A stretch of DNA of 62,978 bases, the filler included, from Jimgerdemannia flammicorona (taxonomy: Eukaryota), in assembly GCA_003990765.1 (NCBI GenBank). It is 3 parts of 3 records of this genome, joined end to end, with 100 filler letters (N's around TTAATTAATTAA, not from the genome) between each part and the next. Parts side by side here need not be neighbours in the genome. Positions count along the whole stretch, not along the records: positions 1 to 20,930 come from RBNJ01001565.1; 2 more parts are not named here. One strand, 5' to 3'. The first letter of the stretch is position 1, and each line of letters begins with the position of its first letter. The notes beneath the pieces were generated by a model. It did not search any database. It saw only the letters and a program-made list of their open reading frames with translations, and was not told the DNA's origin. This document shows, in pieces, positions 2,191-37,286 of the stretch. The position numbers and the translations under genes are program-made.

Positions 2191-2803
2191 CATGATGACT
2201 GCCTGTGAGATTCTAGTCTATGAATCATAACAGCATATCCCATAACTAGTAGGTAATCTGTCTGAACTATTCTCTAAGAAATATGGTATCAGCAACTACT
2301 AATCTGTGAGACTTTCAAAGCCAGAGAAGTTTGAACTGCCAACTGATTGGTCAAGATCAGAATCAGGCCCTTGCTCTATATAAAAGAAGTAATTCTTCAC
2401 TATCATACCAAAATATGTAAAGAAGATACCAGTCTATAAATACTGCTTTTTGACCCCCTGCCAGAGGTTATGAGATTAGTAAATTTTTCAGACTAGACTA
2501 ATAAATAAGAACATTCAAGAGAAGATTCTTATTTAGGAGGAAGATGTAACAGTGACCTCAGAATAGTGATATCATTACACAAGACAGTCTTTTCTTATAA
2601 GTTACCAGATTAGAGCATAAGAAGATTATATAGCATAACTCACTCAGGCTATAAGATGAGCAATGATGACCAACTATGAGTCATCATGACTATAAGATAG
2701 ACATCTTAAGAAATATAAAAGAGAAACTAAGGAACTACAGTAGCAGCAACTCAAACAAGACTCACAAAATTCTAAAATAGCTCAAAGACTTACTTTAAAC
2801 AAA

Positions 2804-3665: not shown

Positions 3666-3867
3666 GTTCTTTGTATAACTGTTATTCTTCTGATATTCTA
3701 ATCTTATATAACTCAGAAATTCTTCCAGCATCCTTTTCTTGTATAATTGAAATTATACTGATATCCTAAACTTATGCAACTATTTATACAGACACTCAAA
3801 TTTGTACTTATAACCAAAGTTTTCTGTATTTCAGTATCTTATTTATTTAGTTATGGAATTTATATAT

Positions 3868-5045
3868 ATTTTTTTTTAATAGACTCAAAGTTCCATGAAT
3901 TTTTATTGGAAGAGAATCTAGACAGTATAGACCAAAACCCTCCCCCACTATCCACCAAGTACTGCCTCCCTATTAACCTAGGCTAACTATTGTCCAGCAG
4001 CTTGACTATACCAGATGTAGTAGGGCCTATAGTGGCCTATATCTCATTCTGCATACCATGCTCTCCCTACTACCAAGGGGAACTCAGCCATATACTAACA
4101 ACCAAAAGCATATATCTGAAATCTCAACATATATACAAGACCATGCTTGAGCCAAATAGATTAGCCTCTGCCACTCTAAGGAGAATGATAGGTAAAGAAA
4201 AAACTCTCATCAAAGTACATCATAGTAGATAGGACCTAGTTCTCTTAGATAAGATGAGTAAAGAACTTATATATGAGGTGGGAGGAGACCTCAATACCCT
4301 ACTACTCAAGTCTGTAGGCCTCAATTACATTGCTATATCAGCTCTCAATTTTAGTTGAGTGTAGCTAAGATGTCTGAAATAGGTAGCCTTGGACCCTCTG
4401 ATCTCTTTCAACAACTAGGGCCCAACTCTACATATTACCAAAAGAAGCCAAGAGTGATATCTACTATCTAACCACTCTATACTAATCAAAAGGCCCCACC
4501 AAAGCAGTATCTGCCCTAGCCCCAATGACTGTCCCCAATCTGGTACCCTACTGGTTCACTATTATTATCCATCCTCCTATCTATAATGGTTATCTCCTCT
4601 CCCATCCTGACAATACTCAAAAAACAGTCACCTATACTAGAACTATACTCATTGATAAGTTTGTCAAAGCCAGAGGACCCCACTATAGATACTGAGAACC
4701 TATAGGTAATCTATACTGGGTACTTGACATCTAAGGTCAGCTGACTCTCTACATAACCTATAATATACTAAGACAATACCTTATTGGTGATGACAAAAGG
4801 AAAAAGGTACTGCACTAAAATAAATATACCCCAGATATAGCTAAAGGTACTAGAAACTGCAAAAAAGTAGAGAAGACACTGATCAGATACTGATAAAAGG
4901 GTAACTTATCACTATTGTCTCCCTCCTACTACCCTGCAATAGATACAGCAAACCAACCTGAGGTAGAGGAGATAATAATTGTGGAAAGTAGACTCAGAAG
5001 GTTGTCTACCAAATCACTGTTACTAGTAAGATAGTAGAGAAAAGA
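3868..5045 (-). mobile_element. 1.2-kb poly(A) non-autonomous retroposon, copy 1
   Basis: Poly(T) at left end; reverse complement of 21330-22533 and 57674-58886; flanked by a TTTATATAT-like duplication within the LTR. Confidence 0.85.
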
Positions 5046-5344
5046 TTTTATATATTTAGCTTTATATCTTAGCAATTATTGAATTATATTTTATATAAAT
5101 ACCTCTCTCATTTTCTTTGAAATAAAGTCATTTCCCTCAGTTTACTTACCTCAATCCATATAAGCAATCTAAGAGATAATAAGATAGTTTAAAAAAAAAG
5201 AAGTTTGAGAACTATAAGATCTTAAGAAGGCACTCTAATAAGAACTTGCTTATAATATAGTTGTAGTTAGTCTAAGAGATATACCTTGAAGAGAATCTGA
5301 TATATTTGAAGCACTCAGTACTCATTATATAACAATATATAGCA

Positions 5345-9351: not shown

Positions 9352-9998
9352 CTATACTCATCTAGCTATAGATAATCTTTTACTATATTCTTTATCTATT
9401 TTCTAGCTTATAAGTAGAGATTTTGAGTACTTTTAGATTTCAAGATAGTAGTATGAATATTATTACTTAATTTCAGTAGTTTTTATATAGTCTTTACAGT
9501 TTGCAGTTTGCAGTTCTTTTATTTATATATTCTGAAACATATATCTCATTAAGTAGAAGTGTTAAAATTTCTTAGTTAAATAGCAACTTAATATATAGTG
9601 ATATAGCCTAACTATATCATTATATAAATATCATCAATCTTGATATATAAAAGTACAACTTTCTCAATTAATAAACAATTACCTCTTGCTTGGGTTATTC
9701 TCTCTAACTCTATAATAATAGTGAAAAACTTCACTATTATATTAATAAAATTTATAAAAATTCAAATATTAGATGGAAGAGAAAAGAGAATATAATAAGT
9801 AAGGAGGGGGAGTTTGAACAGGAATTAGATATACAGAAATATTGATAAAGAGTGGGTTTCTCAATTTTTCCAAATTTCTCACACTTAACAAATTTTTAGA
9901 GAAATTAATCAATTTTATTAAAAATATCTAGAGATGTATAGAATACTATATCTCAATCAGAATTTCAGAAGTAAAGTAAAAAACCAAGTTATACATAA

Positions 9999-11507
9999 TG
10001 TCACATAGTGGTCACTGAGTTCTTCAAATATGCCAGATTCTCTTCAAGATATATCTCTTAGACTAACTCAAGTTTGTTATAAGTAAGTTCTTATTGGAGT
10101 GCCTTCTCAAGGTCTTATAGTCCTCAAACTTCTTATCTTTAACTGTCTTATTATCTCTTAGATTGCTTGCAAGGAAGTATATATTGCACTGAGTTAACTG
10201 ACTTTATTTCAGAGGAAATAAGAGGGGTATTTATACAAAATATAATTCAATGGTTGCTAAGATATAAAGCTAAATATAAATTCCAATAACTAAAACTACT
10301 AAGTTCTAGGGTTGGTACTGATGGTTGTACAGGTTCAGAATGCTGGTATAATTCAGTATCATATCAAAATATCAGTACTAGAACAATTTCGCATCACCTC
10401 AGAATGCCAGTACTGGAATTATCCAGTGTTATGTCAAAATACTGGTGCTGGCATTATTCAGTGTAACAAAGAACTTAGAGCAGAAAGTTCAGGACCATGG
10501 GGCTTCATTATCATCATCATCATTATTACTAAAGGAGATGAGATCCATGAATTCATCATGTAGGTCATGCAGGATGACATCATTACTGATGATGTCATCA
10601 CATTTGGTAGCAGGGAGGAGGTCTGGAGCTCTCCAGTCTATGAGGTTCTCTTCTACAAAATAAGGGACAAATGTGGGGTCTTGGGGAGGTCTAACCTGGA
10701 TGCTTGGGCCTTGGAATACTGAGATCAATCTTTGCAGGAATTGGTCTGGGTTGTCCTGAAAGATGGGATGCCAGAAGTCTTCTACTTAATCACTGTTGAG
10801 GGTGATAGTAGACTGAGCTTCTGTGGCCACCCTGGCTTCTAGTACATTGATATAGTGGGATGATAGATATCTGAAGTCTGAGACTCTAACATACTCCAAG
10901 TTGGGGATTGACCATAGTATATGCCTGAAGATCTGATGGATCTTCTTGGCCATTCTTGTCTCACGTATATCTATAGGAGTGGCATCTTGTAGCTCTTGAG
11001 GGCTGGCCTGTGGGAACTCCTGGCAGAGGAAGTTTCCTATTTCATACTCCTGCTATATTTGGAGATATTCAATAGCAATAGTGATCCTTGTTTCCATTTC
11101 ATAGCAGTAGAGGATAAAGTGATAGGGGTCTGCAGTATCCAGGTTGATACTAGAAGTCCTTCTTGAGTAAGTCCTTATGGCTCTTCTGATGTCTTGGAAT
11201 ATCCTTTCTTTGACTGAGATACCTTGGTGGTTCCTTGACCTTGAGGTTTGGTAGGCAGCAGACATTTCATTTGTAGTAAGTCTTTGAGCTAATTTGGGAT
11301 TGATGGTTCTTGTTGGTTGCTACTACTGCAGTTCCTTGATCCTTCTTTTATATTCTTCAAGATGCTTGTACTGTGGTCACAATAACTCACAGTTGATCAT
11401 CATTGCTCATCTCATATGCTGTATAATCTTCTTATGTTCTGATCTGGTGGCTTGTAAGAAAAGGCTGTCTTCTGTGCTGATGTCATCATTCTGGGGTCAC
11501 TGTTACA
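9999..11507 (-). mobile_element. Family A solo LTR with degenerate ORF (10475-11265)
   Basis: TGTAAC...TGTGACA on the minus strand; 4-bp TSD ATAA at 9995-9998 and 11508-11511. Confidence 0.92.
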
Positions 11508-11661
11508 ATAAATATGATATAGTCTATATAATAAAGGTGGCTATGATCTGGAGATCTTTGAGCAGATTGCTGAAATAAACAGCAGACCAGCTTAGTGGTG
11601 CTCTCAGTATAGCTATATATATATTCTTAATACAATTTAGTATACTATATAAGGTAAGTAC

Positions 11662-14064: not shown

Positions 14065-14288
14065 GTACTTGACTATTTATATAATAGAGAGAGGATTACT
14101 TATGGAATAAAAGAATTGACTAAATGCTAATCTGTTTTGGCAGATATCTAAACCAGGGCTCTCAGGGCTTGATGAAGAGTAAGCTTCTCTAGCACTATCT
14201 AGTAGTATAAGATTCTGAGCCAAGAGTTCATATAACTATATATCTATATTATATTAGAATATATAAGATATAATATTTCTCTATCTAT

Positions 14289-15842
14289 TGTAACAATGAT
14301 CTCAGAATAATGACATCAGCACAGGAGATAGCCTTTCCTTGCAAAGCTATCAGATCAGAGCATAAGAAGATCATACAATATATAAGATAAGCAATAATGA
14401 CCAACTGTGAGTCATTATGACTATAGTATAGGTATCTTGAGAAATATAAAAGAAGGATCAAGGAACCACAGTAGTAGCAATCAATAAGACCCACTAATCT
14501 CAAAATAGCTCAAAGACTTATCATAAATAAAATGCCTGCTACTCACCAAACTTCAAGGTCAAGAAACCACCAAGATATCTCAGTTGAAGAAAGAATATTC
14601 TAAGACATCAGAAGAGCCATGAGGACCCACTCAAGAAGGGCTCCTAGTGTCAACCTAGGTACTGGTGACCCTTATCATTATATCCTCTATTACTGTAAAA
14701 TGGAAACAAGGATCACTATTGCTATTGAATATCTCTAAATATGGCAGGAGTATAAAATAAGAAACCTCCTCTACTAAGAGTTCCTACAGACCAGCCCTCA
14801 AGAGTTACAAGATGCCACTCTCATAGATATATATAAGATAAGGACAGCTAAGAAGATTTACCAGATCTTCAGGTATGCACTATGGTTAATTCCCAACTTA
14901 GAGTATATTAGAGTCTCAGATTTCAGAGATCTATCAGTCTGCTATATTAATGTACTAGAAGCCAGGGTGGCTACAGAAGCTCAGTCTACTATTACTCTCA
15001 ATAGTAATAAAGTGAAAGACTTCTGGTATCCCATCCTTCAGAACAACTCAGACCAATTTCTGCAAGGATTGATCTTAGTATTTCAAGGCCCAAGTATCCA
15101 GGTTAGACCTCTCCAAGACCTCATATTTGTCCCTTATTTCATAGAAGAGAACCTCATAGACTGGAGAGCTCCAGACCTCCTTATTCCTATTACTGCTGAA
15201 TGTGATGACATCATTGGTAATGACATCATCCCATACAATATATATGAAATGTGCAACCTATGTGACAAGATGGATGAGATGTTTGCAGATCTTATCTCCT
15301 TCAAAGACATCCTGACCTCAGATGAGGATGAAGTCCCTATGGTCTTAAATATTCTGCTCTACACTGAATTATGCCAGCACTCTTTTCCTGTATAATAGCT
15401 GTTCCACCACCAGCATTCTGATGTGATACTGAATTATTTCAGTACCATTTTCCTATATTACTAAAATTATACCAGCATCCTGAATCTGTGCAACTATCTG
15501 TACCAATACTGGAACTTAGCAGTTTTCCATATCCTGGTATTTTATTTTAGTTATTGGAATTTATATTTAGCCTTATATCTTAGCAACTATTGAATTATAT
15601 TTTGTATAAATACTCCTCTTATTTCCTTTAAAATAAAGTCAGTTCTGATTCACTTATATACAATCCCTTGCAAGCAATCTAAGAGATAATAAGATAGTTT
15701 AAAGATGAGAAGTTTGAGGACTATAAGACCTTGGGAAGATACTCCAATAAGAACTTGCTAATAACAAACTTGAGTTAGTCTAAGAGATATACCTTGAAGA
15801 GAATTTGATATATTTGAAGGACTCAGTGACCACTATGTGACA
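14289..15842 (+). mobile_element. Family A solo LTR with degenerate ORF (14532-15395)
   Basis: TGTAAC...TGTGACA; TSD CTAT at 14285-14288 and 15843-15846. Confidence 0.92.
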
Positions 15843-16269
15843 CTATATATATATAGACAATAATATCACTCTGATAATATTTTATATTATGAAAAAGAAG
15901 AGCCTTACTTAGAAGAGCAGTAGAGATATCTAGTATAATCTCATCTATGGCTTCAGAGTTCTGTTTTTGGCCAATATGATAGTCTTATTCTAGCTATATA
16001 ATCTCCATAGCATCACTATCTTTAAAGAGAGCTCAGATATAACTATTGTTATACTTATAATAAATAATAGTATAGAACTAATGAGTAGAGTAGTTTTGTA
16101 AAAAATAGATAGTTCAGATATATATTTTTTAATATTAGTTTAGCCTTCTTGCTAGACCCTACTGACTTCTTGACCCTACTATAAGATACTGCTAGTATAG
16201 TGATTCTGTATAGAGCTAGAGTGCTCATGGGATCTAAAATCATACTGGATTCTAACTACTTGAACCTAC

Positions 16270-17255
16270 TTCTTATAATAGATAGTAGGGCTACAAATTC
16301 TGTAAACTCTCTCTGTTGATTCTCTTTTTTTACCTTCTGGCTACTTAGAGTTACTTCTTATAGCAGATAGAGAGCTACAAATTCTATGCACTTTATTAAT
16401 TCTCCTTTTTACCTTCTGGCTATATGGGGTTACTCTTTATAGCAAACAGAGAGCTACAAATTCTACATACTCTCTTTACTGATTTTTCTTTTTTCTTTTT
16501 TCCTTCTAGCTGCTTGAAGTTACTCCTTATAGTGAGCAGAGGGCTACAAATTCTGTATACTCTTTCTGCTGATTCTTCTTTTTATCTTTCAGTTACTTAG
16601 GGTTGCTTTTTATAGTAGATAGAGGGCTGCAAATTCTGTATACTTCTTCTGCTAATTCTCCTTTTTACCTTCTGGCTACTTGGAGTTACTTCTTATAGTA
16701 GACAGAGGGCTATAAATTCTGTATACTCTCTCTACTGATTTTTCTTTTTTTCTTTTTTCTTTCAGCTATTTGGAGTTACTCCTTATAGTAGAAAAGAGGA
16801 CTACAAATTCTATATACTCTCTCTGCTGATTCTCCTTTTTATCTTCTGGTTACTTGGAGTTACTTCTTATAGCAGGGGAGGGCTGCAAATTCTGTATACT
16901 CTCTCTGCCAATTCGTCTTTTCACTTTTTAGCTACTTGGGATTGCTTCTTATAGTAGGTAGAGGATTATAAATTCTATATACTCTCTCTACTAATTTTCC
17001 TTTTTTCCTTCTAACTGCTTAGAGTTACTTCTTATAGTAAATGAAAAGCTATAAATTCTGTATACTTTCTCTGCTGATTTTCATTTTCCATCCTGCATCA
17101 GCTGCTTGAGATTACTTCTTATAGCAGATAGAGGGCTGTAAATTCTATATACTCTCTCTATTAAATCTTCTTTTTATATTTAGCTACTTAGAGTTACTCC
17201 TTACAGCAGACAGAGAGTTGCAAATTCTACACACTCTCTCTGTTAATTTTCTTAC
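16270..17255. repeat. Minisatellite, about 81-bp unit, about 12 copies
   Basis: Recurring CTTATAGCAGATAGAGGGCTACAAATTCTGTATACTCTCTCTGCTGATTCTCCTTTTT motif. Confidence 0.9.
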
Positions 17256-17707: not shown

Positions 17708-18224
17708 TAGTACTCCAAATGAGTCAATTTAATCCAGATGGATTCAGATTGGATTCAGATTGAATCCCATCTGGATTGCTATTGTTTTGATTTCCAAATT
17801 AGACTATTAAATATTTACATCAATAACTCAATAAATAATAATTTAATTTTGATGATCTTAGTATCATTTGAAAGCCCTTAATAAGGCCTTTCTAATGATA
17901 CCAAGAATATTCAAATCAGATTATATATTGCTAAGCTATTAAGGAAAACATTCTTTTGAAGAAATTTCCAAAATCAGCAAGTCAAATAATCTCCAAAATT
18001 GGCAAGTTGGACATTTTTCTTGATAACTCAGCAATATATAATTCAATTTTAATGTTCTTGGTATTATTAAAAGGACCTTATTAAGGGCTTTCAAATGACA
18101 TCAAAATCATCAATATTGGATGATTATTTATTGAGTTATTGATGTAAACATTTAATTGTCTAATTTGGAAATCAAAACAATAGTTGATTCAAATCTGATC
18201 CAGATCAACTTATTCAGAGCACTA
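17708..18224. mobile_element. Foldback MITE (hAT-type termini)
   Basis: TIRs TAGTACTCCAAATGAGT / ACTTATTCAGAGCACTA; internal inverted arms about 17779-17950 and 18012-18183; TSD not recognisable here. Confidence 0.85.
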
Positions 18225-18229
18225 TAATG

Positions 18230-19600
18230 CTATATGGGAGAGAGGAGAGTGGTTAAATGAATATAAAGCTAAAGCAGTCTTCTATATACTTTTAATAGTC
18301 TTACTCTATATATTCTTATTAGTAGTAACTGTAAAATCAATTGGCTTTTTTTAAAAAAAAAATTATTTTTTAATTTAATTAATATATTTCAGCAGACCAA
18401 AAACTGATTTATATTAGTAATTAAAAAGTACTATAGCAAACTCTAGTGTATATTTAATAATTATATATATTAAGTTTCAATAAGTATAAATATCTAATAT
18501 CAGCTCTTTCTAGACTAAATCAATAGCTCTACACTATGTAGTAAATTTGTCTTTTTATTATAAAAATAACCAGACTATTATAATTAGTTTGTATAGCTTA
18601 AAAATAATGCTCAGATTTTTATCACTAATTTCACCTTTATCTTAGGATATTTTATCTATTTATATGAGATAATTCTATATAGCAAGGTTTAGTATAGACC
18701 TGGTAATATATACAGTAACTTTCTATATTAAAGTTATTGAAAAATGTTATATTATTTGTAATATTATCTATTATAATGGTCAAAATCTATCCTTGAAATT
18801 TTTAGAAGATAATTTTGTTTTAAAATAGTAAACTATTTTTAAAAAAAAGTAATTTATTTAGAGTTTCCTAACTATAAAATAGTAAGCTTCCTCTCCTTTT
18901 ACCTTAGTTGTGATCCCAAGCTCATAGATATATTTAATAAAAGTATCCATAATATTTTCTCTTAAATAAAGACTCTCTAGCTTGATAAAGTTGAGAGTCA
19001 GAATTTGAAGCTACTAATTAATATCAATCTAATAACTAGTAATATTTAGAAATAAAATAATATTGAGAGATAACTATATATTAAATGTGAATAAAATTCT
19101 ATCTGACAAATTTTATTTATTTGATATGAGATTAGATTATTGAGTTTTTTTTTTTTTAGTAACAAAGAGATCATAATATTATAGTATTACTCTTATTTTA
19201 TTTAAAGTATTTAGTAGAGATTATTATACTTCTTTCTATAGATCTCAAGAATATTATTATAAATAGTATCAGTACTTAGCAGATATAAATCATACTTAAG
19301 AAGATTAAAGATATCATATAATTAGTTACTCTTAATAGTTATAAATAGTTGATTTATATATATAATCTAGTAAATGAGCTGATTTTAAAACTCTATTGAA
19401 GTATATGGTTAAATAATTTTAATTAAATAGGGTTATTAGTATAGAAGGATTAGATAATCATATATTAGAAAATAACTATACTCACTATAGCTTAGAAGTT
19501 AATTTTATTTATTTCTATATTCTTTTTAATTTTGTCTGAGTATTTTCTCTTATATATTAGTATATGTTTAAAGTTGAACTACTATGTATCTTAAACTTCT
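18230..19600 (-). pseudogene. hAT transposase remnant
   Basis: Minus strand LQILTLNFIKLES, ILTIIIDNITNNITF, ILNLA; homologous to the copy at 23930-25800; boundaries approximate. Confidence 0.7.
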
Positions 19601-19606
19601 AGCTAT

Positions 19607-20930
19607 TGTAATGGTGACCCCAGAATGATGACATCAGCACAGGAGACAGCCTTTCTTTACAAGCCACCAGATCAGAGTACAAGAAGATCATATGGCATGT
19701 GAGATGAGCAACGATGACCAACTGTGAGTCATTGTGACCACAGCACAAGCATCCTGAAGAATATAAAAGAAGGATCAAGGAACTGCAGTAGCAGCAACCA
19801 ACAAGAACCCCAATCCCAAAATAGCTCAAAGACTTACCACAAACAAAAATGCCTGCTGCCCGCCAAACCTCAAGGTCAAGGAATCATCAAGGTATCTCAG
19901 TCGAGGAAAGGATATTTCAAGACATCAGAAGAGCCATGAGGACCCGCTCAAGAAGGACTCCTAGCGTCAACCTGGATACTGCAGACCCTTATCACTTTAT
20001 CCTCTACTGCCATGAAATGGAAACAAGGATCACCATTGCCACCGAATACCTCCAAATGTGGCAAGAATACGAAATAGGAAACCTCCTCTGCCGGGAGTTC
20101 CCACAGGCCAGCCCTCAAGAGCTACAAGATGCCACCCCCATAGACCTACATGAGGCAAGGACAGCAAAGAAGATCTATCAGATCTTCAGGCATGCACCAT
20201 GGTTGATCCCCAACTTGGAGTATGTTAGAGTCTCAGACTTCAGAGACCTGTCATTCCGCTGTATCAATGCACTAGAAGCCAGGGTAGCCACAGAGGCCCA
20301 GTCCACCATCACCCTCAATAGTGAAGAAGTAGAAGACTTCTGGCACCCTATCCTTCAGGACAACCCAGACCAATTCCTGCAAGGATTGATCTCAGTATTC
20401 CAAGGCCCAAGCATCCGGGTTAGATCTCCCCAAGACCCCACATTTGTCCCCTATTTTGTAGAGGAGAACCTCATAGACTGGAGAGCTCCAGACCTTGTTC
20501 CTGATTTTCCCGCCACACCCGAGTGTGATGACGTCATCGATGACGTCATCCCGCACAACATCGAGGCACGCGAAAATGATGAAGTACATGAGACGTGCAA
20601 CCTATATGACGAATTCACGGATCTCATCTCCTTCAGTGATGATGATGATGAAGCTCCCATGATCCTGAACTTTCTGCTCTAAAGTTCTTTGTTACACTGG
20701 ATAATGCCAGCACCGGTATTCTCATGTAACACTAGATAATGCCAGTACCAGTATTCTGAGGTGACACGAAATTGTTCCAGCACTGGTATTTTGACATGGT
20801 ACTAAATAATGCCAGCTCTGGAACTCAGTAGTTTTAGTTATTGGAATTTATATTTAGCTTTATATCTTAGCAACCATTGAATTATATTTTGTATAAATAC
20901 CTCTCTTATTTCCTCTGAAATAAAGTCAGT
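19607..20930 (+). mobile_element. Family A LTR, least mutated copy, running into an assembly gap
   Basis: Starts TGTAAT after CTAT; TATAAATA at 20892, AATAAA at 20919; retains CpGs. Confidence 0.9.
19849..20682 (+). CDS. 277-aa protein of unknown function encoded inside the LTR (U3); basic N-terminus, acidic C-terminus
   Basis: Uninterrupted ATG-to-stop ORF in AAAAATG context; colinear in three other LTR copies; similar to ORF 35195-35707. Confidence 0.85.
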   Translation: MPAARQTSRSRNHQGISVEERIFQDIRRAMRTRSRRTPSVNLDTADPYHFILYCHEMETRITIATEYLQMWQEYEIGNLLCREFPQASPQELQDATPIDLHEARTAKKIYQIFRHAPWLIPNLEYVRVSDFRDLSFRCINALEARVATEAQSTITLNSEEVEDFWHPILQDNPDQFLQGLISVFQGPSIRVRSPQDPTFVPYFVEENLIDWRAPDLVPDFPATPECDDVIDDVIPHNIEARENDEVHETCNLYDEFTDLISFSDDDDEAPMILNFLL

Positions 20931-21030
20931 NNNNNNNNNNNNNNNNNNNNNNNNNNNNNNNNNNNNNNNNNNNNTTAATTAATTAANNNNNNNNNNNNNN
21001 NNNNNNNNNNNNNNNNNNNNNNNNNNNNNN
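20931..21030. other. Assembly gap with artificial TTAATTAATTAA linker
   Basis: N-run, 12-nt all-frame stop linker, N-run; identical to the second gap. Confidence 0.97.
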
Positions 21031-21164: not shown

Positions 21165-22494
21165 AGTCAAAGGGATAGACTATGCAAAGGATTATATGGT
21201 ATTAAGCAAGTAGTGCACCTATGGAATATATAAAAGAATTGATAAATATCTCCTTAACAATAGATTTAAGTATTGCAAAGTAGATAATTGCATATATATC
21301 TAGTATTATAATGATAGTATAGTATTCATCTCCTTTCTCTGCTACTTTACCAGCCATAATGATTTGGTAAGTAATCTTCTGAGTCTACTTTCCATAATTA
21401 TTACCCCCTCTACCTTAGATTGATTTGCTATACCTATTGCAGGGCAGTGAGAGGGAGGCAATGGTGATGAGTTGCCCCTTTATCAGTGTCAGATTAGTGT
21501 CTTCTCTACTTTTTTGTGGTTTCTGGTATCTTTGGATGCATCTGGAGTGCATCTGTTTTGGTATAGTATCTTCTTTCTTTTGCTATTACCAACAAGGTGC
21601 TGTCTTGGTATGTCTCAGGCTATGTAGGGAGTTGGCTGACCTTGGGCATTAAGTGCTCAGTATAGGTTACCTGCAGGTCCTCAGTGCTTGTAGTGGAGCT
21701 CTCTGGCTTTGGTGAGCTTCCTGGTGAGCATGGTTCTGATGTATATGACTGCTTTTTGGGTATTATCAGGATGGGAGAGAAGATGGCCATCACAGATAGA
21801 AGAAAGAGTGATAATAGTGAACTAGTAGAGTACTAGGCTGGGGGTGGTCATTAGGGCTGGGGCAGGTACTGCTTTGGTGGGGCCTTTTGATTGGTATAGA
21901 GTAGTTAGGTAGTAGGTATCACTCTCAGCTTCTTTTGGCAATTCAGCAAGTTGGGCCCTGGTCATTGGGGGGGGTCAGGGGGCCTGAGGCTACTCATTTC
22001 AGACATCTTAGCTGCACTCAACTGAAACTAGAAGCTGACATGGCAATGTGATCAAGGCTTATAGGCTTGAGTAGTGGAGTATTGGAAGTCTCCTCTCACC
22101 TCATATGTAAGTTCTTTACTTACCTCAACTGAGAGAACCAGACCCTATCCACCATGATGTACTTTGATGAGGGTTTTTCTTTGCCTGTCATTCTCTTTAG
22201 GGTGGCAGAAGCTATTCTATTCAGCTTGGGTGTAGCCTTGTATATATGTTGGGGTCTTGGGCATATGCTTTCAGTTGTTGGTATATGGCTGGGTCTCTCC
22301 TAGTAATAGAGAGAGCATAGTGTGCAGAATGAGGTGCAGGCCAATATAGGCTCTGCTGCATCTGGCATAGTCAAGCTGCTAGATAATAGCTAGCCTAGAT
22401 TAATGGGGAGGCAGTGCTTGATAGATGGTGGAGGAGGGTTTTGGCCTATATAGTCTAGATTCCCTTCCAATAAAAATCTACAGAACATTGAGTC

Positions 22495-22535
<41 letters not shown>

Positions 22536-26601: not shown

Positions 26602-28132
26602 TGTAACAGACCAAAATGTACCACCTGAATTATAACTTAACCAGACAACATGAACAATTAGCATACTTACTCAGCATGATGTGACTTCCAGTATATTATA
26701 GTTACTCATGCTCGCCACACTTATAATTAGCCAAGACACCAGATCAGGATTATTTACCTGTGTCCTGAGGACACACTCATGTCCGGCGGACACACTCATG
26801 TCCTGCAGACATACTCATGTCCTGTGGACACACCTGTACCCAGAGGACACACCCAAACATTACCAAAGATAGCAAATCTATAGTTAGCCACATAGTAACC
26901 AGATAGCAACCAACTTGTATAAATTACCCTAGAGGCGCAAGTGAATAAAACCTTAGTCTGAATTGAAGTGCAAACCAAAGAAGCCTCTAAAGATTGAGCA
27001 ATTGGTCCTCTTATTCCCACTCTGGTCCACTTTCCAATACAAAGAAGAGTTTGTTACGTTTTTGGTTCGCTTGCCAGATAAGCCTGAAGATTTGCCACCT
27101 AAGTTTAAGGAGAACTTTGCCGCCTTTTGAAGAACCCGCCACTTAAAGGAATAAGCTGTGCTATTGGTATGCTTACCAGATAAGCCTGAAGAACCCTATC
27201 CTCTGCCTTCCCAAGAAAGCCGCCTTGCTCAAGCTAGTTTCTGATGCAACTTCGCAGTGATCTGTTCACACAAACGAAGCCAGTCTTTGATGCAACTTTG
27301 CCAAGAGACCCTTTCCAAGAATGCCACCAGTAGTTCATATTCCCAGTTGAAGCCGCTGATTTAGAAGAATCTGCGCCACCCGAGTTATTTCCCAGAAGCC
27401 CGCCGATTCAGGAAGAATCCACGCCATCCCATTTCCCAGTTAGAACCCTGCCGATTCAGGAAGAATCTGCGCCATCTGAGTTAATTCCCAGTTAAGCCAC
27501 CATTTTCAAGAAGTCTGCTGATTCAGGAAGAATCTGCGTCATTCGCCGTTTTCAAGTTATCCACATTCCCAGAGAATCCATGCCACCTGAGTCGCTGTTC
27601 CCAGAGGAGCCCAACCCGTGACATCTGAGTTATTCGTCATTTCCAGTGAGCCCGGAAGAATCCACTGCCTGTACTATTTCCAATAACAAGAACCCACGCC
27701 ATATATTCCCAGAGAGCCAAATCAGGTTATCTGCCGAATTATCAGAACATCTGCATAAGGAACCCATCGCGCTACACAGAGATCGTCATGCAGAAATCAC
27801 ATAAGAAGAACTATTAAATTGCCAGACCATCACACACAAGGAGATCATCGCGCTACACAGAAATCACCTATCACTCAAGAAGGAAACTGCTCGCACTACA
27901 CACAAATTGTGCCATTCCCAGTTGACCCAAGAAGGAAAAGACATACAAATCGCTGCTACACCCAGAGAACTGTCCCAATAAGGAAACTGCTTGCACAGTA
28001 TCCAGATCTTGACTATTATACCACTAAACACCAAGAACATTTTGTTGCTTTTAACAAAGTAACTGGGGGCTCAAGCCAAACTACATCAACCCCCAACCTT
28101 GTAATTTGCCTCCATTGAGCTGGCATGATACA
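26602..28132 (+). repeat. Family B 5' LTR
   Basis: TGTAAC...GATACA; direct repeat of 35747-37286. Confidence 0.95.
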
Positions 28133-28134
28133 TT

Positions 28135-28151
28135 TGGGGGCTCAACTGGGA
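28135..28151 (+). promoter_or_regulatory. Primer-binding site, tRNA-Pro-like
   Basis: TGGGGGCTCAACTGGGA two bases after the LTR; resembles the tRNA-Pro PBS TGGGGGCTCGTCCGGGA. Confidence 0.75.
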
Positions 28152-28201
28152 AGATTTCAAAATTGACGTGACTTTTTAGCTCACAAGAACCCACAGTCAA
28201 A

Positions 28202-31200
28202 CTGGATACATTTGATACAACACCAACCTCTGCTACTACAGGAGAACCAGTCATCACTAGCATTTAGACAGGAAGAGAAGTAATCACCTCGAGACTTGTC
28301 AACTACCCAGCATCAGAAGAATCTCAACCAGAAGCAGGAGGCAGTATAGCCTGAAACCCTCAGCCAGATCAACCAGATCAACCAGATCAACCAGATCAAC
28401 CAGACAATACAGGTAGCCCTGCTGGAGATTTTGGAGAACTTGCATAAGAACTAGAAGACTTTATTACCCAGACCCAACACCTTACAGCCAGACACCCCAC
28501 ATCAGTCCCACTAATTTCACCAATAGAACCCCTACCACAATCTCTTGCAGAACTAGAAGTAGCTCCTACAAGGATACCTAGGCCTACTCTACCTCACCCA
28601 AGGACCAGAACACCATCTTTAAGATACCTAAGCACCCTGGTCTCTAGTGACAATTCAGAAAGTGAATCAGAATCAGAATCCGAATTCGAACCAGAATCAG
28701 AAGAAAGTGACAAAGAAATGGCCACCTCATTGCCAATCTTTGCAGGATACCTGGAGGAAGACCCCAGAGAATTCCTTGATGGAATCGAAGGAATTGCAGC
28801 CTTGAGGAATCTCTCAGATGAAAGGAAAATTGCCATCTACAAAGCTCAGCTCAGAGAACCAGCCAGAGGGATTTTCCATCAAACAGCAAACAACCCAGAT
28901 TCTGAACTAGCAAGACAGATACAAGCAGCAGTCTCCTATGAGCTAGAATATCAGGCCATGGTCTACTGGCTCATAGAAAAGTATGCAGGAAATGAAACCT
29001 GCCACAAGGCTCAGGAATCTATCATGGGAATGAAGATGAATCTTGGAGAATCACCCAGAGCCTTCTTTATAAGAATCCAGAAGAGAATGCATTCTGCTGG
29101 GTTCAATGCCACCAACCAAGACATCATATGTAGGTCCAATGACCTTCATGAATGGAATTCCCCTGAATATTGCCCAGCATGTCTACACCCTAGGCATCAG
29201 AAGGTCCGAAGAGCAAGTAGATGTAGCCCAAGGATTCTTTGATGTCAGGCAAGGAACTACCTGGAGTGACCATGACAAGAAGGAAGATAAAGAAGATATC
29301 TTGGTCAAAGCCCTGCAAGGACTCCTTCAAGGACAAGAAAGATCTGAAGAAAGAAGGCTAGCCAAGGAAGAAAAGAAGGACAGAAGCAAAATTCAAGACC
29401 TCAGCTCCAAGTTAGACTGATTGGTTGGACAGATTGAAAAACTCACCACACGCGAAAATCAGGACTACCAAAACAACAGAGGGTACCCACCACAGAGGAA
29501 CCAAGGTTATCCATCAAGAGATAACAGGAATTACCAGCAAGAAGAAAGAAGGTACTCTGTCCGAGACAGAGCCCAAGTCCAATACTTCCACTGTGGACAA
29601 CTTGGACACTATGCCACTGAATGTGACAACAAAAAAAGTGACCAAAGGGACTCAGAACCACCAAACCAAAGAAATGACACCCAGTACAAGAAGACTGAAG
29701 CCCATCCTGTTGAAGATTTCGAGGAAGCAAGCAACAGTGAAGACTACAGTGACCTAGACTTGTACCCTATGAAGGTTACCACCCAAAAGACAGTCTACCC
29801 AGCAGAGAAAAGAAAGAGACCTGTGGGAAGACCATCCAGGAACATCAGCAGAAGAATCATTCAAGAAGAAGATGAGGAACATGAGGAGGAACAAGTTGAA
29901 ACACCTCCCCAAACCCCCTCACCTTTTGTGCCTGAGACAAATAAGTTGCCACCAGAAGATGAAGAAATGGAACAAGAAGAACGGGAACCTGCTGCTCCAA
30001 AGCCTAAGAAGAAGTACACCCTGAAGACCATGCCTAGAGACATTTACAATAAAGCCTGGCAGAAGATCCAAGAAGCCAAGATGGAAGTTCCTCTCCTGCA
30101 GTTCTTGCAACTGACACCAGCTGGAGTCCGAAACAAATTGCTGAGAACCACCAGGTCTAGCACTGGCCGAGTTCCAATCCCACAGCAAGAACCAGCCTCC
30201 ATCCCTGTCCAAGCAGCCGAAAGACATGTCAGCACCTACTTACATGGAGACATTGGAGGACAAAAAGCAAAAATCCTCATAGATACAGGAGCAGCTGTTT
30301 GTGTCATTGTCAAATGATTCTTGGACACCCTCCAATGGCCCATTGATGGACCATCCAACCTCAGCATCATAGTAGCAGATGGAGCCCAAACTCAACCCCT
30401 TGGTGAAGTATGAAATATCACCATCTCCCTTAGACACATTCAGTTCTCCATCCCCAAAGCTGTTGTCACCAAAGCTGTCACCTATGACATGATTCTTGGT
30501 ACCAACTGGATGAAGGAAATGAATGCAGTTATTAATATTGGCCAACAAGTACTCAAGTTTGACTACCGAGGCAAGAAGTATAGAGTTAAGGTGACCAGCT
30601 ATGAGCAATCAAAGAAGAAAAAGAAGGTCACTATTCAAGAAGAATATGCCAGTAGTGAGGAGTCTACTACAGAAGAGGAAGAAGAATCCGAAGATGGAAA
30701 TGATCCCAGACTCAATCCACGAATTAACCTGGTGGATGACAGACCAGAAGACAATGTGTGGGCCAAGAACACTATCCCTATCACTATTGGAGCTATCGCA
30801 GGAGAGACCAAAGGATGCCCTACATGCCTCAAGAGACACAAGTATCCCAAGCACTCCTCCAAGATCATAGGAAAAAGGAAATCACCTGATGCAGCCTGCC
30901 CAGAATGCAGAAGAAAGAAGAAGAAATGCAGACATGTTCCAGAAATACCTGCGACCAAAGCTGCAGAAGTACAAGTAATTTGGGGTCAAGAATCATCTGA
31001 GGAAGAAGAAACTTCTGATCAAGAAGTTCCTGAACAAGAAGCACCTGATGAAGAAGAAGTCCCTGAACTCATCCCCTGGGATAACCCTCACTGGACACCA
31101 CCTGAAGACAATGACCCCTGGAATACAGAGGAAGGACCCAGTACTATCACTATTATCCCCAAGAAAGAAACCCACCAAGAGAAAGCTTTTCAGCTAGGAA

Positions 31201-32723
31201 GATGTCCACATCAAATGGTCTTCCACTCTCCCCGAGACTACTGCTATCAGTGTCATCTGTTGGATCAACAAGAAAGACAGAGACCCCAGAGACCAGAACC
31301 CCCAACTACTCTTACACAGTCCACCACCTTTCAAGAAGTCACCACAAGGCTACAAAGTCAATTTAGGGGACAAGGCTTCTTCACCTGAACAGAAATCTAC
31401 CCCTTGTCTACCCTTCCCCCAACCTATGATCAAGATGGGTACCAATTCCCAAGACAACAAGAGATAAATAGCCAGGAACATCATTTCCGAGCAATGGGAT
31501 ATTGCAACTATGAGAGACACCCTGATTGCCGAGACTGCAGACATCAGAAGATTCACCTCAGTCATGATGTTGTAGTGTACACCTTGAAGAAAGGAGATAA
31601 CCAAAGCCAGATCCAAAAGAGTCAGATTCGAAAAAGCCAGACCAAGAAGCCTGGAAAAAGAATTCTCAAGATCTACAATTTGAGAGAAGACATCCTAGCT
31701 CTTATCAGACATGCAACCCACCAAGGATGGGCAGAAGATGCAACCAACTTTATAGAAGCCCTTGACCCTACAGGAAGGAGGGGAATCAATTACCTCTGAG
31801 ACCCCTCTACTGGAGCCAGGTGGCCACACCTCAACCTTAGAGCTTGGAGACTCTCTGCTAGTGGAGCTTCAGCCTTAGGAAAGCCAGAACTCAGCAAGGA
31901 TATTGCCCAGTATGCCCTGCTGCACCCCAAGGCCAAACCTCTGAGCAAAGCCCATCCAGAGGATATAGGATATGATCTTCACAGCCTGGAGGACAAATCT
32001 ATCAAGCCTGGGAAAACCTTCATGGTCAGAACTGGATTGGCCATGCAGCCACCCCAAGGAGCTTATATTCAACTGACCTCAAGGTCTGGACTTGCCAGAC
32101 AAGGGATAACTGTAGAAGGAGGAACCATTGACCCTAGATATACAGGCGAAATCAAGGTTATCCTACACAACAGCAGTGCAGAATGGCACTGAATCATTAG
32201 AGGACAGAAGATTGCCCAAGCAGTCTTCATGAAGGTCAAGACCCCACAGTTACAGGAAGTCTCTGAACTAACTGAAGGAACAAGACAAGCTGAAGGATTT
32301 GGAAGTTTAGACAGAAAAGAGGTACATCTCCTTCAAGTCAACTGCCTCAAGAGGAATGTTCCCCAGCAAGTATACTGGCAACCAGTCAGACTGCACAAGA
32401 ATCTCATCCTGGAGCCTAGAGAACAAACCACTTTCGAAATCTTTGCACCACCCGACCCCAGGAACCTTTTCTTTGAACCCAAGGAAGATATCCTACACCT
32501 GGATATAGAGGGACACACATTCCCTGACAAAATGAACCCAGTATACTCCCGAGCAACCAACCAAAGTTGAGAGACCATCATCCTGCCGAAAGGAACCATC
32601 ATAGGACATCTGGTACCTTTTCTCAACCGAACACATAGAGAAGTTTATGAACTAAACCTATCGGGAAACGGCAAAAGGTCCCAGAAGAAAGGAAAGGCCC
32701 CTCTGCAACCCAGGAGACAGTGA
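28202..32723 (+). pseudogene. Gag (CCHC knuckle)-aspartic protease-Cys/His-rich region-dUTPase polyprotein
   Basis: YFHCGQLGHYATEC (first Cys decayed), ILIDTGAAVCV, MILGTNW; one frameshift near 29130; internal stops mostly TGA/TAG; true start uncertain. Confidence 0.88.
31910..32310 (+). pseudogene. dUTPase domain
   Basis: GYDL, TSRSGLA, GGTIDPRYTGEIKV, GQKIAQ, RQAEGFGS = five trimeric dUTPase motifs; one TGA. Confidence 0.93.
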
Positions 32724-34135
32724 AGCCTTCCACCAACATTGGAGAAGAATTGACACCTCAACAACAGCAATAACTAGTAGAACTTCTCAACAAATATCAA
32801 GATATCTTCACCACTGATTATGGCAACCTGCCATACAACCTATCATATCACCACAGCATAAATACAGGAAATGCAACACCCATCCAGCAGAAACCCTATA
32901 GAATACCCCATCACTTGAAAACATTCGAAAAGGAGCACATCCAAGAACTCTTAGACAATGGAGCCATCCGACCCTCTACCAGCCCCTGGGCCAGCCCTAT
33001 ACTTATTGTACCAAAGAAAGGAGGATGGAGACTCTGCGTGGATTACAGAAAACTCAACTCAGTCACTGAAAAGGATGCTTATTCTTTGCCCAGAATCGAT
33101 GATCTTTTGGACCAGTTACAAGATGCCAGATACTTCAGCAGTATGGACCTCTTCACAGGATTTCATGAGATCCTCATGGACCCCAAGGACATTCAAAAGA
33201 CAGCCTTCCTTGCTCTAGGAAAACTGTTTGAATACCTCTGAATGCCCTTTGGACTTTGCAATGCACCCCCCACCTTCCAGAGGATGATAAACTCAGTCTA
33301 TGCCCCCTTGATCCACCACTGTCTGATTGTATACATGGATGACTCCAACATCTATTCAGCAAATTTCGAAGAACACCTGCGCCACCTAGAGGAATTCTTC
33401 AAGCTCACCCGCAAGAATCACTTAAGACTAAATGCAAAGAAATGCTACTTTGGAAAACAGAAACTCGAATTTCTTGGATTCGTGGTCTCAAAAGAAGGAA
33501 CTCATACAGATCCAAAGAAAACCGAGAAGATCAACAATTGGCCAGTACCCAAGACTCCAAAAGAAATACTATCATTCCTGATGCTAGTATCCTACTACAG
33601 AAGATTCATCAAGGATTTTGCCCAAATTGCTGCCCTAATCCGAATCCTTCTCAAGAAAGGAATGACATTCAAGTGGACAGAATTACAGGAAAAAGCCTTC
33701 AGAGAACTCAAGAACCACATGACTACAGCACCAATCCTTGTGCGCCCCAATCTATAGAAGCCATTCATCTTGTATACAGATGCTTCCAAAGATGGCCTCG
33801 GAGCAGTTCTAGCCCAAGAAGGACCTGACCAACAGCACCATATAATAGCTTATGCAAGCAGGGCTACCAATCAGCAGCAGATGAACTATGGCAGCACCAA
33901 ACTGGAATGCCTTGCAGTCATATGGGTGGTCACCCTGTTCAAGCATTACCTCATCAGAAAAAGATTCACTCTGATCACAGACCATGCAGCCCTCAAATGG
34001 CTATTCAACTGCAAGGAACCTGCTGGAATTCTAGCCTGCTGAATCCTTATCCTCCAGGATTACAAAATCACCATCATTCACAAAGCAGGGAAAGCCCACA
34101 ACAATGTTGATGTACTTTCCTGCCAGCCCCAATGA
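32666..34135 (+). pseudogene. Reverse transcriptase-RNase H (-1 frame)
   Basis: WASPILIVPKKGGWRLCVDYRKLN, MPFGLCNAP, YMDD, YTDAS, TDHAAL. Confidence 0.95.
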
Positions 34136-35211
34136 ATCAGAGGAAGGGTGTCCCAAGGAACCACACCCTAAAAGAAGCTCCTCAGACTATCAAAGCACAA
34201 GAAGATCTTATCTGAAAAGAACATCAGAAAGCCCACCAAGGACAGACAAGCATAGAAGATAGGATTCGAAAACAATATCAACATTGGCCCCACCTCAGAA
34301 CTCAAGTTCGAGACATCATCCAGAAATATGACATCTGCCAGAAGTACCAAGGAAAGAAGAACTATCAAGCCCCTCTGCAACCGATTCCCCCACCCACTCA
34401 CATCTTTCAAAGATGGGGAGTAGATGTAATTGGACCTCTACCAGTTACACCAAGAAGAAACAAATACATCCTTGTATTTGTAGAATATCTGACCAAGTGG
34501 CCCGAGGCTTTCCCAATGGAAATCGCAGATGTCTTAACCATTGTAGGCCTCCTCCATGGACTCACACTCAGATATGGACCTGCAGAAGAACTTATCTCTG
34601 ACTGAGGCACAGAATTTGTCAACAACATAATCACAAGTTATGCCCAAATTCAAAAGATCCACCTCAAAAGGACCACATCATACCACCCCCAGACCAATGG
34701 CATGATAGAAAGAATGAACCAGACCATCAAGAAAGAACTTGCCCAAGTCAACCTTATTAATTGGGACCTCTGCTTACCTGAGATCCTATGGGAAATTCGG
34801 AACACCCCTGCCACATCTACCAAACAAAAGCCATTCGAAATGATGTTTGCCAAGAAAACCAGAACTGCTGACCATGAGAATCTCGAAGACCTCCTCAAGA
34901 AGACAGAACAGTTACGAAATCAAGTCCAAGGACAGATTATCAAAGCCCAGGAAAGACAAAAGAAGTATTATAACCAAAAACAGAAGGATCAGGAGATCAG
35001 GATTGGAGATTAAGTCCTAGTTTGGAGAAGCATGATCGAGACAAACTTTGCCACCAAACTGAAACCAAAATAGGAAGGACCTTATCTTGTACACAACATC
35101 AGAGAAACCAGCATCTATTTAAGAAGCATAGATGGATGAACCCTGAGAACACCAGTACACATCAATCGCCTCAAGATATACTTCCCCTCACACTATGAAC
35201 TAGAGAATTGA
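34132..35211 (+). pseudogene. Integrase (separate reading frame)
   Basis: HQKAHQG..YDICQK zinc motif, WGVDVIGPLP, SD*GTEF, YHPQTNGMIER, GPY; no chromodomain visible. Confidence 0.92.
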
Positions 35212-35707
35212 CAACCACCTCCAAACTCTTGTTCTCAGTTCCCTCCAAGCCCTACCAGTTCCCTTGCCTCAGTTCTGGGAACCCAATGGAATGTATCTTC
35301 AGAAAATCCAAGTTCATCAAGAGAACCTCACTTTGGCTGAGAGGCTACTCTAGGTTCACCAGCTGTAGGCATATTATACAATTGGAGAACAATTGCAGAA
35401 TCTTCCTCTCCCAGACCTAGCCTATGTCCGAAACACCACTGGCCTGAATAGAAGGAACACTACTGCTGCAGACAGACTATATACAATATACAAACGAAAT
35501 CCTTCTGCCTTAATCCAGGCCCAGTTTTCCCTGAATGACCTCCAAAGGATGACACAGCCCACCTACCTCAGCATTATTCACCAAGTGGAGATCCTATTTC
35601 CCAAAGAAGAAGAAGAGCCCCTAGAATGGAGTGACCATAGCTCAGATGATGATGATGGAACAGGTATAGATGCAGAAGCTGCTTATGTCTATTGGGATGA
35701 TGACTGA
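35195..35707 (+). pseudogene. Extra 3' ORF (about 170 codons), homologue of the family A LTR protein
   Basis: ATG at 35195 in frame with ORF 35393..35707; three TAG stops explainable as CAG>TAG; acidic tail. Confidence 0.75.
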
Positions 35708-35746
35708 AGAATAGTCTGGGGCAGACTACCCTTCAGTGGGGGCTGA

Positions 35747-37286
35747 TATAATAGACCAAAACGTACCACCTGAATTATAACTTAGCCAGACGACGCGAAC
35801 AATTAGCATACTTACTCAGCATAATGTGGCTTCCAGTGTATCATAGTTACTCATGCTCGCCACACTTATAATTAGCCAAGACACCAGATCAGGATTGTTT
35901 ACCTGTGTCCTGAGGACACACTCATGTCTGGCAGACACACTCATGTCCTGCGGACACACTCATGTCCTGCAGACACACTCATGTCCTGTAGACACACCTG
36001 TACCCAGAGGACACACCCAAACATTACCAAAGATAGCAAATCTATAGTTAGCCACATAGTAACCAGATAGCAACCAACTTGTATAAATTACCCCAGAGGC
36101 ACGAGTGAATAAAACCTCAGTCCGAATTGAAGTGCAAACCAAAGAAGTCTCTAAAGATTGAGTAATTGGTCCCCTTATTCCCACTCTGGTCCACTTTCTG
36201 ATACAAAGAAGAGTTTGTTACATTTTTGGTTTGCTTGCCAAATAAGCCTGAAGATTTGCCACCTAAGTTCAAGGAGAACTTCGCCGCCTTTTGAAGAACC
36301 TGCCACTTAAAGGAATAAGCCGCGCTATTGGTACACTTGCCAGATAAGCCTGAAGAACCCTATCCTCCACCTTCCCAAGAAAGCCGCCTTGCTCAAGCCA
36401 GTTTCTGACACAACTTTGCAGTAATCTGTTTGTGCAAACAAAGCCAGTCTTTGATGCAACTTTGCCAAGAGACCCTTTCCAAGAATGCCGCCAGTAGTTT
36501 GTATTCCCAGTTGAAGCTGCCGATTTAGAAGAATATGCGCCACCTGAGTTATTTCCCAGAAGCCTGCCAATTCAGGAAGAATCTACGCCATCCCATTTCC
36601 CAGTTAGAATCTCACTGATTCAGGAAGAATCTATGCCATCCGAGTTAATTCCCAGTTAAGCCGCCATTTTCAAGAAGTCTGCTGATTCAGGAAGAATCTG
36701 CGTCATTCGCCATTTTCAAGTTATCTGCATTCCCAGAGAATCTGCACCACCCAAGTCGCTGTTCCCAGAGGAGCCCAACCCACAACATCCGAGTTATTTG
36801 TCATTCCCATTGAATCCACTGCCTGTACTATTTCCAGTAACAAGAACCCACACCATATATTCCCAGGGAGCCAAATCGGGTTATCCGCCGAATTATCAGA
36901 ACATCCACATAAGGAACCTGTCGCGCTACACAGAGATCGTCATGCAGAAATCACATAAGGAGAACCGTTAAATTGCCAGACTGTTATACACAAGGAGATC
37001 ATCATGCTATACAGAAATCACCTATCACTCAAGAAGGAAACTGCTCATGCTATATACAAATTGTACCATTCCCAGTTGACCCAAGAAGGAAAAGACATAC
37101 AAATCGCCACTACACCCAGAGAACTGTCTCAATAAGGAAACCGCTCACATAGTATCCAGATCTTGACTATTATACCACTAAACACCAAGAACATTTTGTT
37201 GCTTTTAACAAAGTAACTGGGGGCTCAAGCCAAACTACATCAACCCCCAACCTTGTAATTTGTCTCCATTGAGCTGGCATGTTACA
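35747..37286 (+). repeat. Family B 3' LTR
   Basis: Decayed start TATAATAGACC after AGTGGGGGCTGA; ends TGTTACA. Confidence 0.95.

Follow-up and report, generated by a model that had tools for sequence, protein, structure and literature searches.

Can the long terminal repeat (LTR) of a retrotransposon outside the retroviruses carry a protein-coding gene of its own? Retrotransposon LTRs are usually treated as non-coding promoter and terminator modules, and genes located in U3 characterize a small number of complex retroviruses. The question is raised by positions 19607–20930 of a 62,978-nucleotide stretch of DNA from Jimgerdemannia flammicorona (assembly GCA_003990765.1; the whole stretch is called the window below), where a repeat contains an intact open reading frame (ORF) of 277 amino acids. 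An original prediction made on this DNA held that the ORF is a gene lying in the U3 region of a Gypsy LTR. The analysis presented here shows the repeat to be a Ty3/Gypsy-type LTR and indicates that the ORF is very probably a selected protein-coding gene within that LTR. The explanation that we favor as a whole, with somewhat better than even confidence, is that U3 carries a lineage-specific accessory protein gene that would be transcribed from its own promoter and would encode a soluble, trans-acting factor.

The repeat and its copies

A blastn search of the whole window with 19607–20930, and then with a longer query, recovered four copies of the ORF-bearing repeat, in agreement with the original prediction of a four-copy, 1.5-kb repeat bounded by TG and CA. 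The repeat measures approximately 1.51 to 1.55 kb (1,509 and 1,554 bp in the complete copies) and has the termini TGTAAC...GTGACA, which give it TG...CA ends with a short inverted repeat. The copies, the sequences adjoining them, and a related element used for comparison are as follows.

19607–20930, plus strand: LTR copy with the intact gene; CTAT at the 5′ flank; 3′ side truncated, with N from 20931
9999–11507, minus strand: solo LTR, 83% identical to the copy at 19607; TTAT duplications (minus strand) at 11508–11511 and 9995–9998
14289–15842, plus strand: solo LTR, 76% identical to the copy at 19607; CTAT duplications at 14285–14288 and 15843–15846
2545–3868 and 5046–5334, plus strand: 3′ LTR of a 5′-truncated element, about 77% identical, split by a nested repeat at 3869–5045
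2536–2544, plus strand: polypurine tract GGAGGAAGA, adjoining the LTR start TGTAAC at 2545
633–2096, plus strand: degenerate RNase H/integrase coding sequence left from the owner element of the 2545 LTR (tblastx)
26602–37286: full-length sister Gypsy element with a CTAT/CTAT duplication and a pair of LTRs, about 1.53 kb long, that share 90.6% identity

The evidence identifies the repeat as an LTR belonging to a Ty3/Gypsy-type element. Two of its copies are, as had been proposed, solo LTRs with perfect target-site duplications of 4 bp each (CTAT/CTAT and TTAT/TTAT). The proposal that a further copy follows integrase and a polypurine tract is borne out at 2545 by the GGAGGAAGA junction and by the remnant at 633–2096, which is collinear, and in one direction, with the RNase H and integrase of the sister element at 32–39% amino acid identity (tblastx). 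The order at this copy is thus RNase H-integrase, polypurine tract, and 3′ LTR, with the reverse transcriptase (RT) of the owner element lying outside the window. The solo LTRs with their duplications, taken with the way reverse transcription works, imply that the entire span from the polypurine tract to the terminal CA would be present in each LTR of a new insertion.

Public sequence data point to the same boundary. Logan contigs from four public runs were mapped onto 19400–20930, and contig depth jumped at precisely 19607/19608, from approximately zero to hundreds. The loose contig ends before 19607 yielded a consensus ...TTCAGGAGGAAGA (five contigs in the soil metagenome run X1 and three in X2), which is the same polypurine junction as that found at 2545 in the window. 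Run X1 gave 1,570 contigs on the stretch, 207 of them at 99% identity or more. Among the 22 public runs listed for the stretch, part of it was present in 20 and half of its words in none.

The original account needs one correction, in that the copy at 19607 is not complete. It is approximately 210 bp shorter on its 3′ side than the other copies, and it stops at 20930 because a contig joint (44 N, TTAATTAATTAA, and 44 N) begins there; it may be either a solo LTR or a 5′ LTR.

An inverted RT-like fragment (288–578, minus strand), with 42–51% amino acid identity to 32852–33142, is found immediately 5′ of the RNase H/integrase remnant, and the owner element of the 2545 LTR is therefore truncated or rearranged on its 5′ side. 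The 1.18-kb repeat nested in this LTR at 3869–5045 has further copies at 21331–22507 and 57684–58871 (both on the minus strand), with about 79% identity among copies, and may be a solo LTR of another family.

A coding sequence within the LTR

The ORF was found in all four LTR copies by tblastn, in the following states.

19849–20682, plus strand: intact ORF of 277 amino acids; 285 codons from stop to stop, with an in-frame stop 8 codons 5′ of the ATG
ORF in the solo LTR 9999–11507, minus strand: two stops and a frameshift near the 3′ end
ORF in the solo LTR 14289–15842, plus strand: three stops, all from C>T-type changes, and no frameshift
ORF in the 2545 copy, plus strand: five stops plus an insertion of 4 nt, with a tail that finishes in ...SRVLNILL at 3662

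The start codon of the intact ORF lies 242 nt inside the LTR, and the frame takes up 54% of the LTR length. The original description of an ORF that fills more than half of the LTR, is intact at 19849–20682, and stands upstream of a TATA box (TATAAATA at 20892–20899) therefore holds. This frame ranks third among the longest open frames of the whole window, and none of 2,000 first-order Markov simulations of the LTR reached its 285 open codons (median, 97; maximum, 224).

Several comparisons argue that the frame has been maintained as a protein-coding sequence, which we consider very probable. The window ORF was compared with the DNA of a homologue contig, L001 (1,345 bp), which encodes a 323-amino-acid protein that is approximately 55% identical. 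Over the core, of about 210 codons, pS was 0.69 and pN 0.22, corresponding to a Nei-Gojobori (NG86) dN/dS of 0.14 (0.17 over the whole ORF); these ratios are imprecise because dS is near saturation, and they are not near 1, the value between subfamilies that the original prediction had named as counting against it. In a six-frame test against L001, frame +0 alone was without stops and had a low ratio (pN/pS, 0.32); the remaining five frames had 12 to 22 stops each, with pN/pS of 1.0–1.5 in four of them and 0.48 in antisense frame −1, which shares third positions. Nucleotide identity to L001 was 435/637 in the ORF core versus 120/245 in the 3′ flank, which is alignable around the TATA box only.

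The decayed copies within the window retain traces of the same constraint. Third-position changes were in excess in all three, and the indels in the coding part of the 14289 copy (6, 3, 24, 12, and 12 nt) are all multiples of three; in the copy at 9999–11507, indels of 12, 3, and 42 nt are accompanied by a further one that disrupts the frame. Masking of C>T and G>A changes had been suggested as a check on selection, and when it was applied to the window copies, synonymous changes made up 10/15, 10/14, and 17/26 of the remaining transitions, or 37/55 altogether, compared with a neutral expectation of 29% for the intact ORF.

Relative to the intact copy, C>T/G>A predominate among the differences. 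The changed sites are most often CpG (45–57%), followed by CpA (20–36%) and then CpC and CpT, a pattern that fits deamination of methylated cytosine or a process like repeat-induced point mutation, between which four copies cannot separate. The original wording that the gene "spreads as solo LTRs" was misleading, in that solo LTRs are immobile recombination remnants and the ORF is broken in both of those in the window.

The encoded protein has an uneven charge layout. Residues 1–45 form a basic, arginine-rich N terminus (10 K+R and 4 D+E), residues 46–212 a conserved core, and residues 213–277 an acidic tail (20 D+E and 1 K+R) that has short hydrophobic motifs and ends in LNFLL. No hydrophobic segment was found in the protein, the maximal Kyte-Doolittle mean over 19 residues being 0.49. 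AlphaFold2 models were poor (mean predicted local distance difference test scores of 35.5 and 48.9) and consisted mainly of helices, with a short hairpin at residues 200–212.

Homologues were sparse and appeared in short contigs. A word-indexed search of 5.8 billion proteins gave six clusters, on short JGI/ENA contigs, whose members include two full-length proteins of 323 amino acids that are about 55% identical and have the common start MPA..QT.RSR. A profile search of 1.84 billion cluster representatives of any length gave five clusters only at an E value of ≤0.001, all of them again on short contigs and none of them containing a longer, fused, or cellular relative. Members found by this profile search (P0017, P0019, and P0020) have 28–44% identity, and P0019, the most divergent homologue, is encoded on a metagenome contig of 4,848 bp. 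Full-length relatives down to 39% identity retain both the MPA... start and the ...LNF.L end, and divergent members keep the motifs WxEYEI, AKK.HQ.FRH.P, NP.LQDNPDQ.LQG, F.GPPIR, and IPYF in addition to the acidic tail and, usually, the terminal LNF.L.

Matches to named families were not obtained. Pfam gave no family for the ORF at an E value of ≤1 and only two weak, unrelated matches for 14 homologues; PDB sequences gave no match at an E value of ≤10; the best ESM Atlas match (0.91) was to an unnamed cluster only; and no homologue was matched in viral contigs. As far as sequence comparison goes, the LTR ORF family is an orphan, and neither Pfam, PDB sequences, nor the homologue searches linked it to an already described LTR-borne gene family, the kind of match that the original prediction had named as counting against it. 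The family is represented in soil metagenome data (run X1).

Expression, function, and rival explanations

Several motifs in the copy at 19607 bear on how the ORF may be expressed.

20892–20899, plus strand: TATAAATA box, proposed promoter of the genomic RNA at the U3/R border, downstream of the ORF
20919–20924, plus strand: AATAAA poly(A) signal, 237 nt 3′ of the stop codon
19762–19769, plus strand: TATAAAAG TATA box, 87 nt 5′ of the ATG, proposed promoter of the LTR gene
19629–19636, plus strand: TGACATCA, a cyclic AMP response element (CRE)-like site, 23 nt into the LTR; in three of four copies, unmatched in the 2545 copy
20528–20549, plus strand: two perfect ATGACGTCAT palindromes in the tail-coding region reading DDVIDDVI

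The TATAAATA and AATAAA motifs place the ORF, by inference, in U3, because transcription starting approximately 25–30 nt past TATAAATA would begin at or just past AATAAA. A start at or past the poly(A) signal is the usual way for an LTR to avoid termination in its 5′ copy. The two motifs stand 19 nt apart in the copy at 19607 and 18 nt apart in L001, with intervening and surrounding bases diverged, and the 2545 copy shows that the ORF follows the polypurine tract. Directly upstream of the ORF stands another conserved TATA box, TATAAAAG, which was absent from the original account; all four window copies retain it, and in the divergent L001 it is the first part of the contig.

Reverse transcription copies everything from the polypurine tract to R onto both ends of an element, so that each new insertion would receive two copies of the gene and each solo LTR would keep one. 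The following model of expression is proposed. The genomic RNA would be initiated from the TATAAATA box, with its 5′ end at the poly(A) signal or immediately beyond it. A separate, monocistronic mRNA of about 1.1 kb would be transcribed from the TATAAAAG box and would terminate at the poly(A) signal of the same LTR, such that each LTR would be a self-contained unit of promoter, ORF, and terminator. The resulting factor could activate LTR transcription, or could recruit or divert host factors for chromatin or RNA handling.

What the protein does can be suggested only tentatively. From the charge layout, the helical conserved core, and the variable acidic tail, it may be, though this is more doubtful than not, a soluble and probably nuclear accessory factor acting in trans for its family, either by activating transcription or by linking the element to the chromatin or RNA machinery of the host; from its composition only, it does not appear to be of a structural or membrane type. 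The label of transactivator or anti-silencing protein comes solely from the distribution of charge; the fold prediction is too poor to help. Patterns in the tail that resemble a SUMO-interaction motif, an LxxLL motif, and an export signal are not relied on. In its fullest form, the model holds that every LTR is an autonomous gene, with a TATA promoter, a conserved ORF of 277–342 amino acids, and a poly(A) signal, whose nuclear, trans-acting product, arginine-rich at its N terminus and with motifs in its acidic tail, boosts the whole family, and this we put forward as a speculative extension that is more doubtful than not. The boost could come through transactivation, RNA export, or counter-silencing; dosage would rise with each insertion, and young solo LTRs would still supply the factor after loss of the coding body.

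The manner of expression invites other explanations. The U3 gene may be real but lack a promoter of its own, being expressed instead, like mouse mammary tumor virus (MMTV) sag or human immunodeficiency virus (HIV) nef, through a spliced or subgenomic RNA from the 3′ part of the element, with TATAAAAG as a motif of the enhancer region or a coincidence. We regard this as unlikely. In its favor, known retroviral U3 genes use spliced mRNAs, the sole copy attached to an internal region is a 3′ LTR and contains the ORF, and an AG (AAAATAG followed by C) that is kept in all four window copies lies 25 nt 5′ of the ATG. However, no polypyrimidine tract precedes this AG, no upstream ATG occurs between TATAAAAG and the start codon, and TATAAAAG is kept in L001 at a similar distance from the ATG. 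Alternatively, the conserved TATA box 5′ of the ORF might itself be where the genomic RNA starts, in which case the ORF would be a leader cistron in R/U5 and not a U3 gene. This arrangement is improbable: it needs an R of about 1.15 kb containing AATAAA, and most transcripts from the 5′ LTR would therefore end before gag, whereas the conserved spacing of 18–19 nt between TATAAATA and AATAAA fits the usual start at or past the poly(A) signal.

It is also conceivable, but very improbable, that the element has no working gene here at all, the ORF being either a captured or decaying piece of a host gene or a frame left open by a T-poor sense strand. The sense strand is indeed poor in T (178 of 834 positions), three of the four copies are broken, and neither a function nor a domain match was found. 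Against this stand the composition-matched simulations, 0 of 2,000 of which reached the observed length, the frame-specific signal of selection, the in-frame indels, and the restriction of homologues to five clusters in the profile search of 1.84 billion representatives, none of them containing a cellular protein or a longer fusion.

The favored explanation of a U3 accessory gene with its own promoter must be set against a number of observations that weigh against it. The window contains neither a full-length element of the ORF family nor one of its 5′ LTRs followed by a primer-binding site, and paired LTRs were not seen directly. The gene is broken in three of the four window copies, both solo LTRs included, and these copies are decaying, because their C>T/G>A changes lie near the neutral expectation (46%, 49%, and 38% synonymous, compared with 37% expected). 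The three window comparisons have one common reference copy and are not independent, and the homologue test of selection relies on the DNA of a single relative, L001, from which pS is 0.69–0.70 and near saturation. None of the 22 public runs listed for the stretch is on record as RNA, and contigs reveal neither the starts nor the ends of transcripts. The proposed function finds no homology in Pfam, PDB sequences, or ESM Atlas and no fold support in the AlphaFold2 models. Finally, the gene is not needed by the clade, because the sister element, which has the same LTR termini, has no LTR ORF.

Further observations concern DNA motifs and contig coverage in the LTR. Each complete LTR copy has three TGAC(G/A)TCA sites at recurring positions, the first of them 23 nt into the LTR and the other two in the tail-coding region, which can be read as bZIP/CRE-like. 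The window contains 16 matches to this motif, 12 of them in the four copies compared with 3.2 expected by shuffling, an excess that is largely due to the repeat itself. Decayed or variant forms of the ATGACGTCAT pair occur in the other window copies and in L001, and the DNA of the DDVI repeat may double as codons and binding site. In runs X19 and X20, which are guessed to be RNA, contigs cover the ORF at 85–95% likeness, three of them beginning near 19811–19817, with a length variant at 19809; no inference is drawn from these. The interval 20492–20647 was thinly covered in the mapped runs, which probably reflects the variable tail and is not used as evidence.

The sister element, known systems, and other features of the window

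The sister element is grouped here with the dUTPase-bearing Gypsy elements of fungi. It encodes a gag zinc knuckle (just below the Pfam cutoff), dUTPase, RT, RNase H, and integrase, with the dUTPase between the presumed protease and the RT. The closest named relatives of its RT are from Rhizophagus and Gigaspora (47–50% identity), with plants and amphibians close behind at 38–48%, and these RT relatives are the one hint in the sequence that the ORF-bearing element is, plausibly, fungal. It resembles the owner of the ORF-bearing LTR in its LTR start (TGTAACAG), its 4-bp (C/T)TAT duplication, and its LTR length of approximately 1.5 kb. In contrast, each frame of its LTR is interrupted by 19 to 28 stops, the ORF has no homologue there, and its integrase region is divergent from the remnant at 633–2096, at the identity given above.

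MMTV provides the closest parallel in arrangement. Its sag gene, which encodes a superantigen, is an ORF lying wholly in U3 of a betaretrovirus LTR, upstream of the LTR TATA box. Like sag, the present ORF is wholly inside the LTR, would therefore be duplicated at both ends, and is retained in solo LTRs, and both LTRs are unusually long (more than 1.3 kb). The two differ in that the present element is of Ty3/Gypsy type, with no env seen and with a TATA box of its own 5′ of the ORF, and in that the protein matches neither the Sag family nor, at an E value of ≤1, any Pfam family. Moreover, Sag is a membrane glycoprotein, whereas the LTR ORF protein has no hydrophobic anchor. HIV and simian immunodeficiency virus nef and foamy virus bel/bet are also similar in that they specify non-structural accessory proteins from the 3′ end of the genome that reach into the LTR. 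Those genes, however, begin internally and merely overlap U3, unlike the present ORF with its ATG well within the LTR, and Pfam and PDB gave no sequence match between Nef or Bel/Bet and the LTR ORF. Judged from sequence, the arrangement works like that of MMTV sag, and the protein lies outside the Sag and Nef families.

Additional ORFs (aORFs) in LTR retrotransposons have been described in other settings. Ty3/Gypsy or Copia elements, among them the plant Ogre, Retand, and SIRE types and the bdelloid rotifer elements with ORF3s, have extra lineage-specific genes of unknown or regulatory function (PMC7264820 and PMC5408684). In the cases covered, and unlike the present gene, these occupy the internal part of the element, either ahead of gag, following the LTR, or after pol, preceding the 3′ LTR. 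Such aORFs are lost on formation of a solo LTR, whereas an LTR gene is retained. The phrases "in the LTR," "within the LTR," and "inside the LTR" do not occur in PMC7264820, and no non-retroviral LTR-borne ORF appears in the portions covered of PMC7264820, PMC10787394, and bioRxiv 10.64898/2026.05.04.722472. A search of the full-text literature, with subscription journals outside its coverage, likewise gave no LTR-borne ORF in a non-retroviral LTR retrotransposon; LTR ORFs were found for MMTV sag and other retroviruses only.

If the favored explanation is true, a U3 accessory gene was acquired independently outside the retroviruses, solo LTRs are possible protein-coding loci that annotation pipelines mask as repeats, and the family offers a tractable case for studying how a transposon factor works in trans, whether upon the family that encodes it or upon silencing by the host. 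Should the more doubtful proposal of an autonomous gene in every LTR hold as well, a non-retroviral and probably fungal retrotransposon would have a retrovirus-like, "complex" regulatory layer.

The window as a whole is AT-rich (GC content of 0.25–0.47 in 2-kb steps). Spacers of 100 bases (44 N, TTAATTAATTAA, and 44 N) at 20931–21030 and 41959–42058 divide it into three pieces, which are probably separate contigs, and adjacency across the spacers therefore means nothing. Scans of the window against Rfam and for tRNAs gave no match. Between 42000 and 52000, GC skew is strongly negative (−0.40 to −0.53), and a scan of eight frames of 126–283 amino acids gave no credible Pfam family, one having a subthreshold match to DUF7237 (E value, 0.0059); a further degenerate element, of a type not recognized here, may account for this region. 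Tandem arrays are found at the window start (1–280, with repeat offsets of 33–66 bp) and at 16250–17253, where a period of approximately 83 bp extends for about 1 kb directly 3′ of the solo LTR at 14289. A further repeat family, with copies at 17717–18080, 53039–53402, and 54247–54478 that are 76–85% identical, is common to the first and third pieces.

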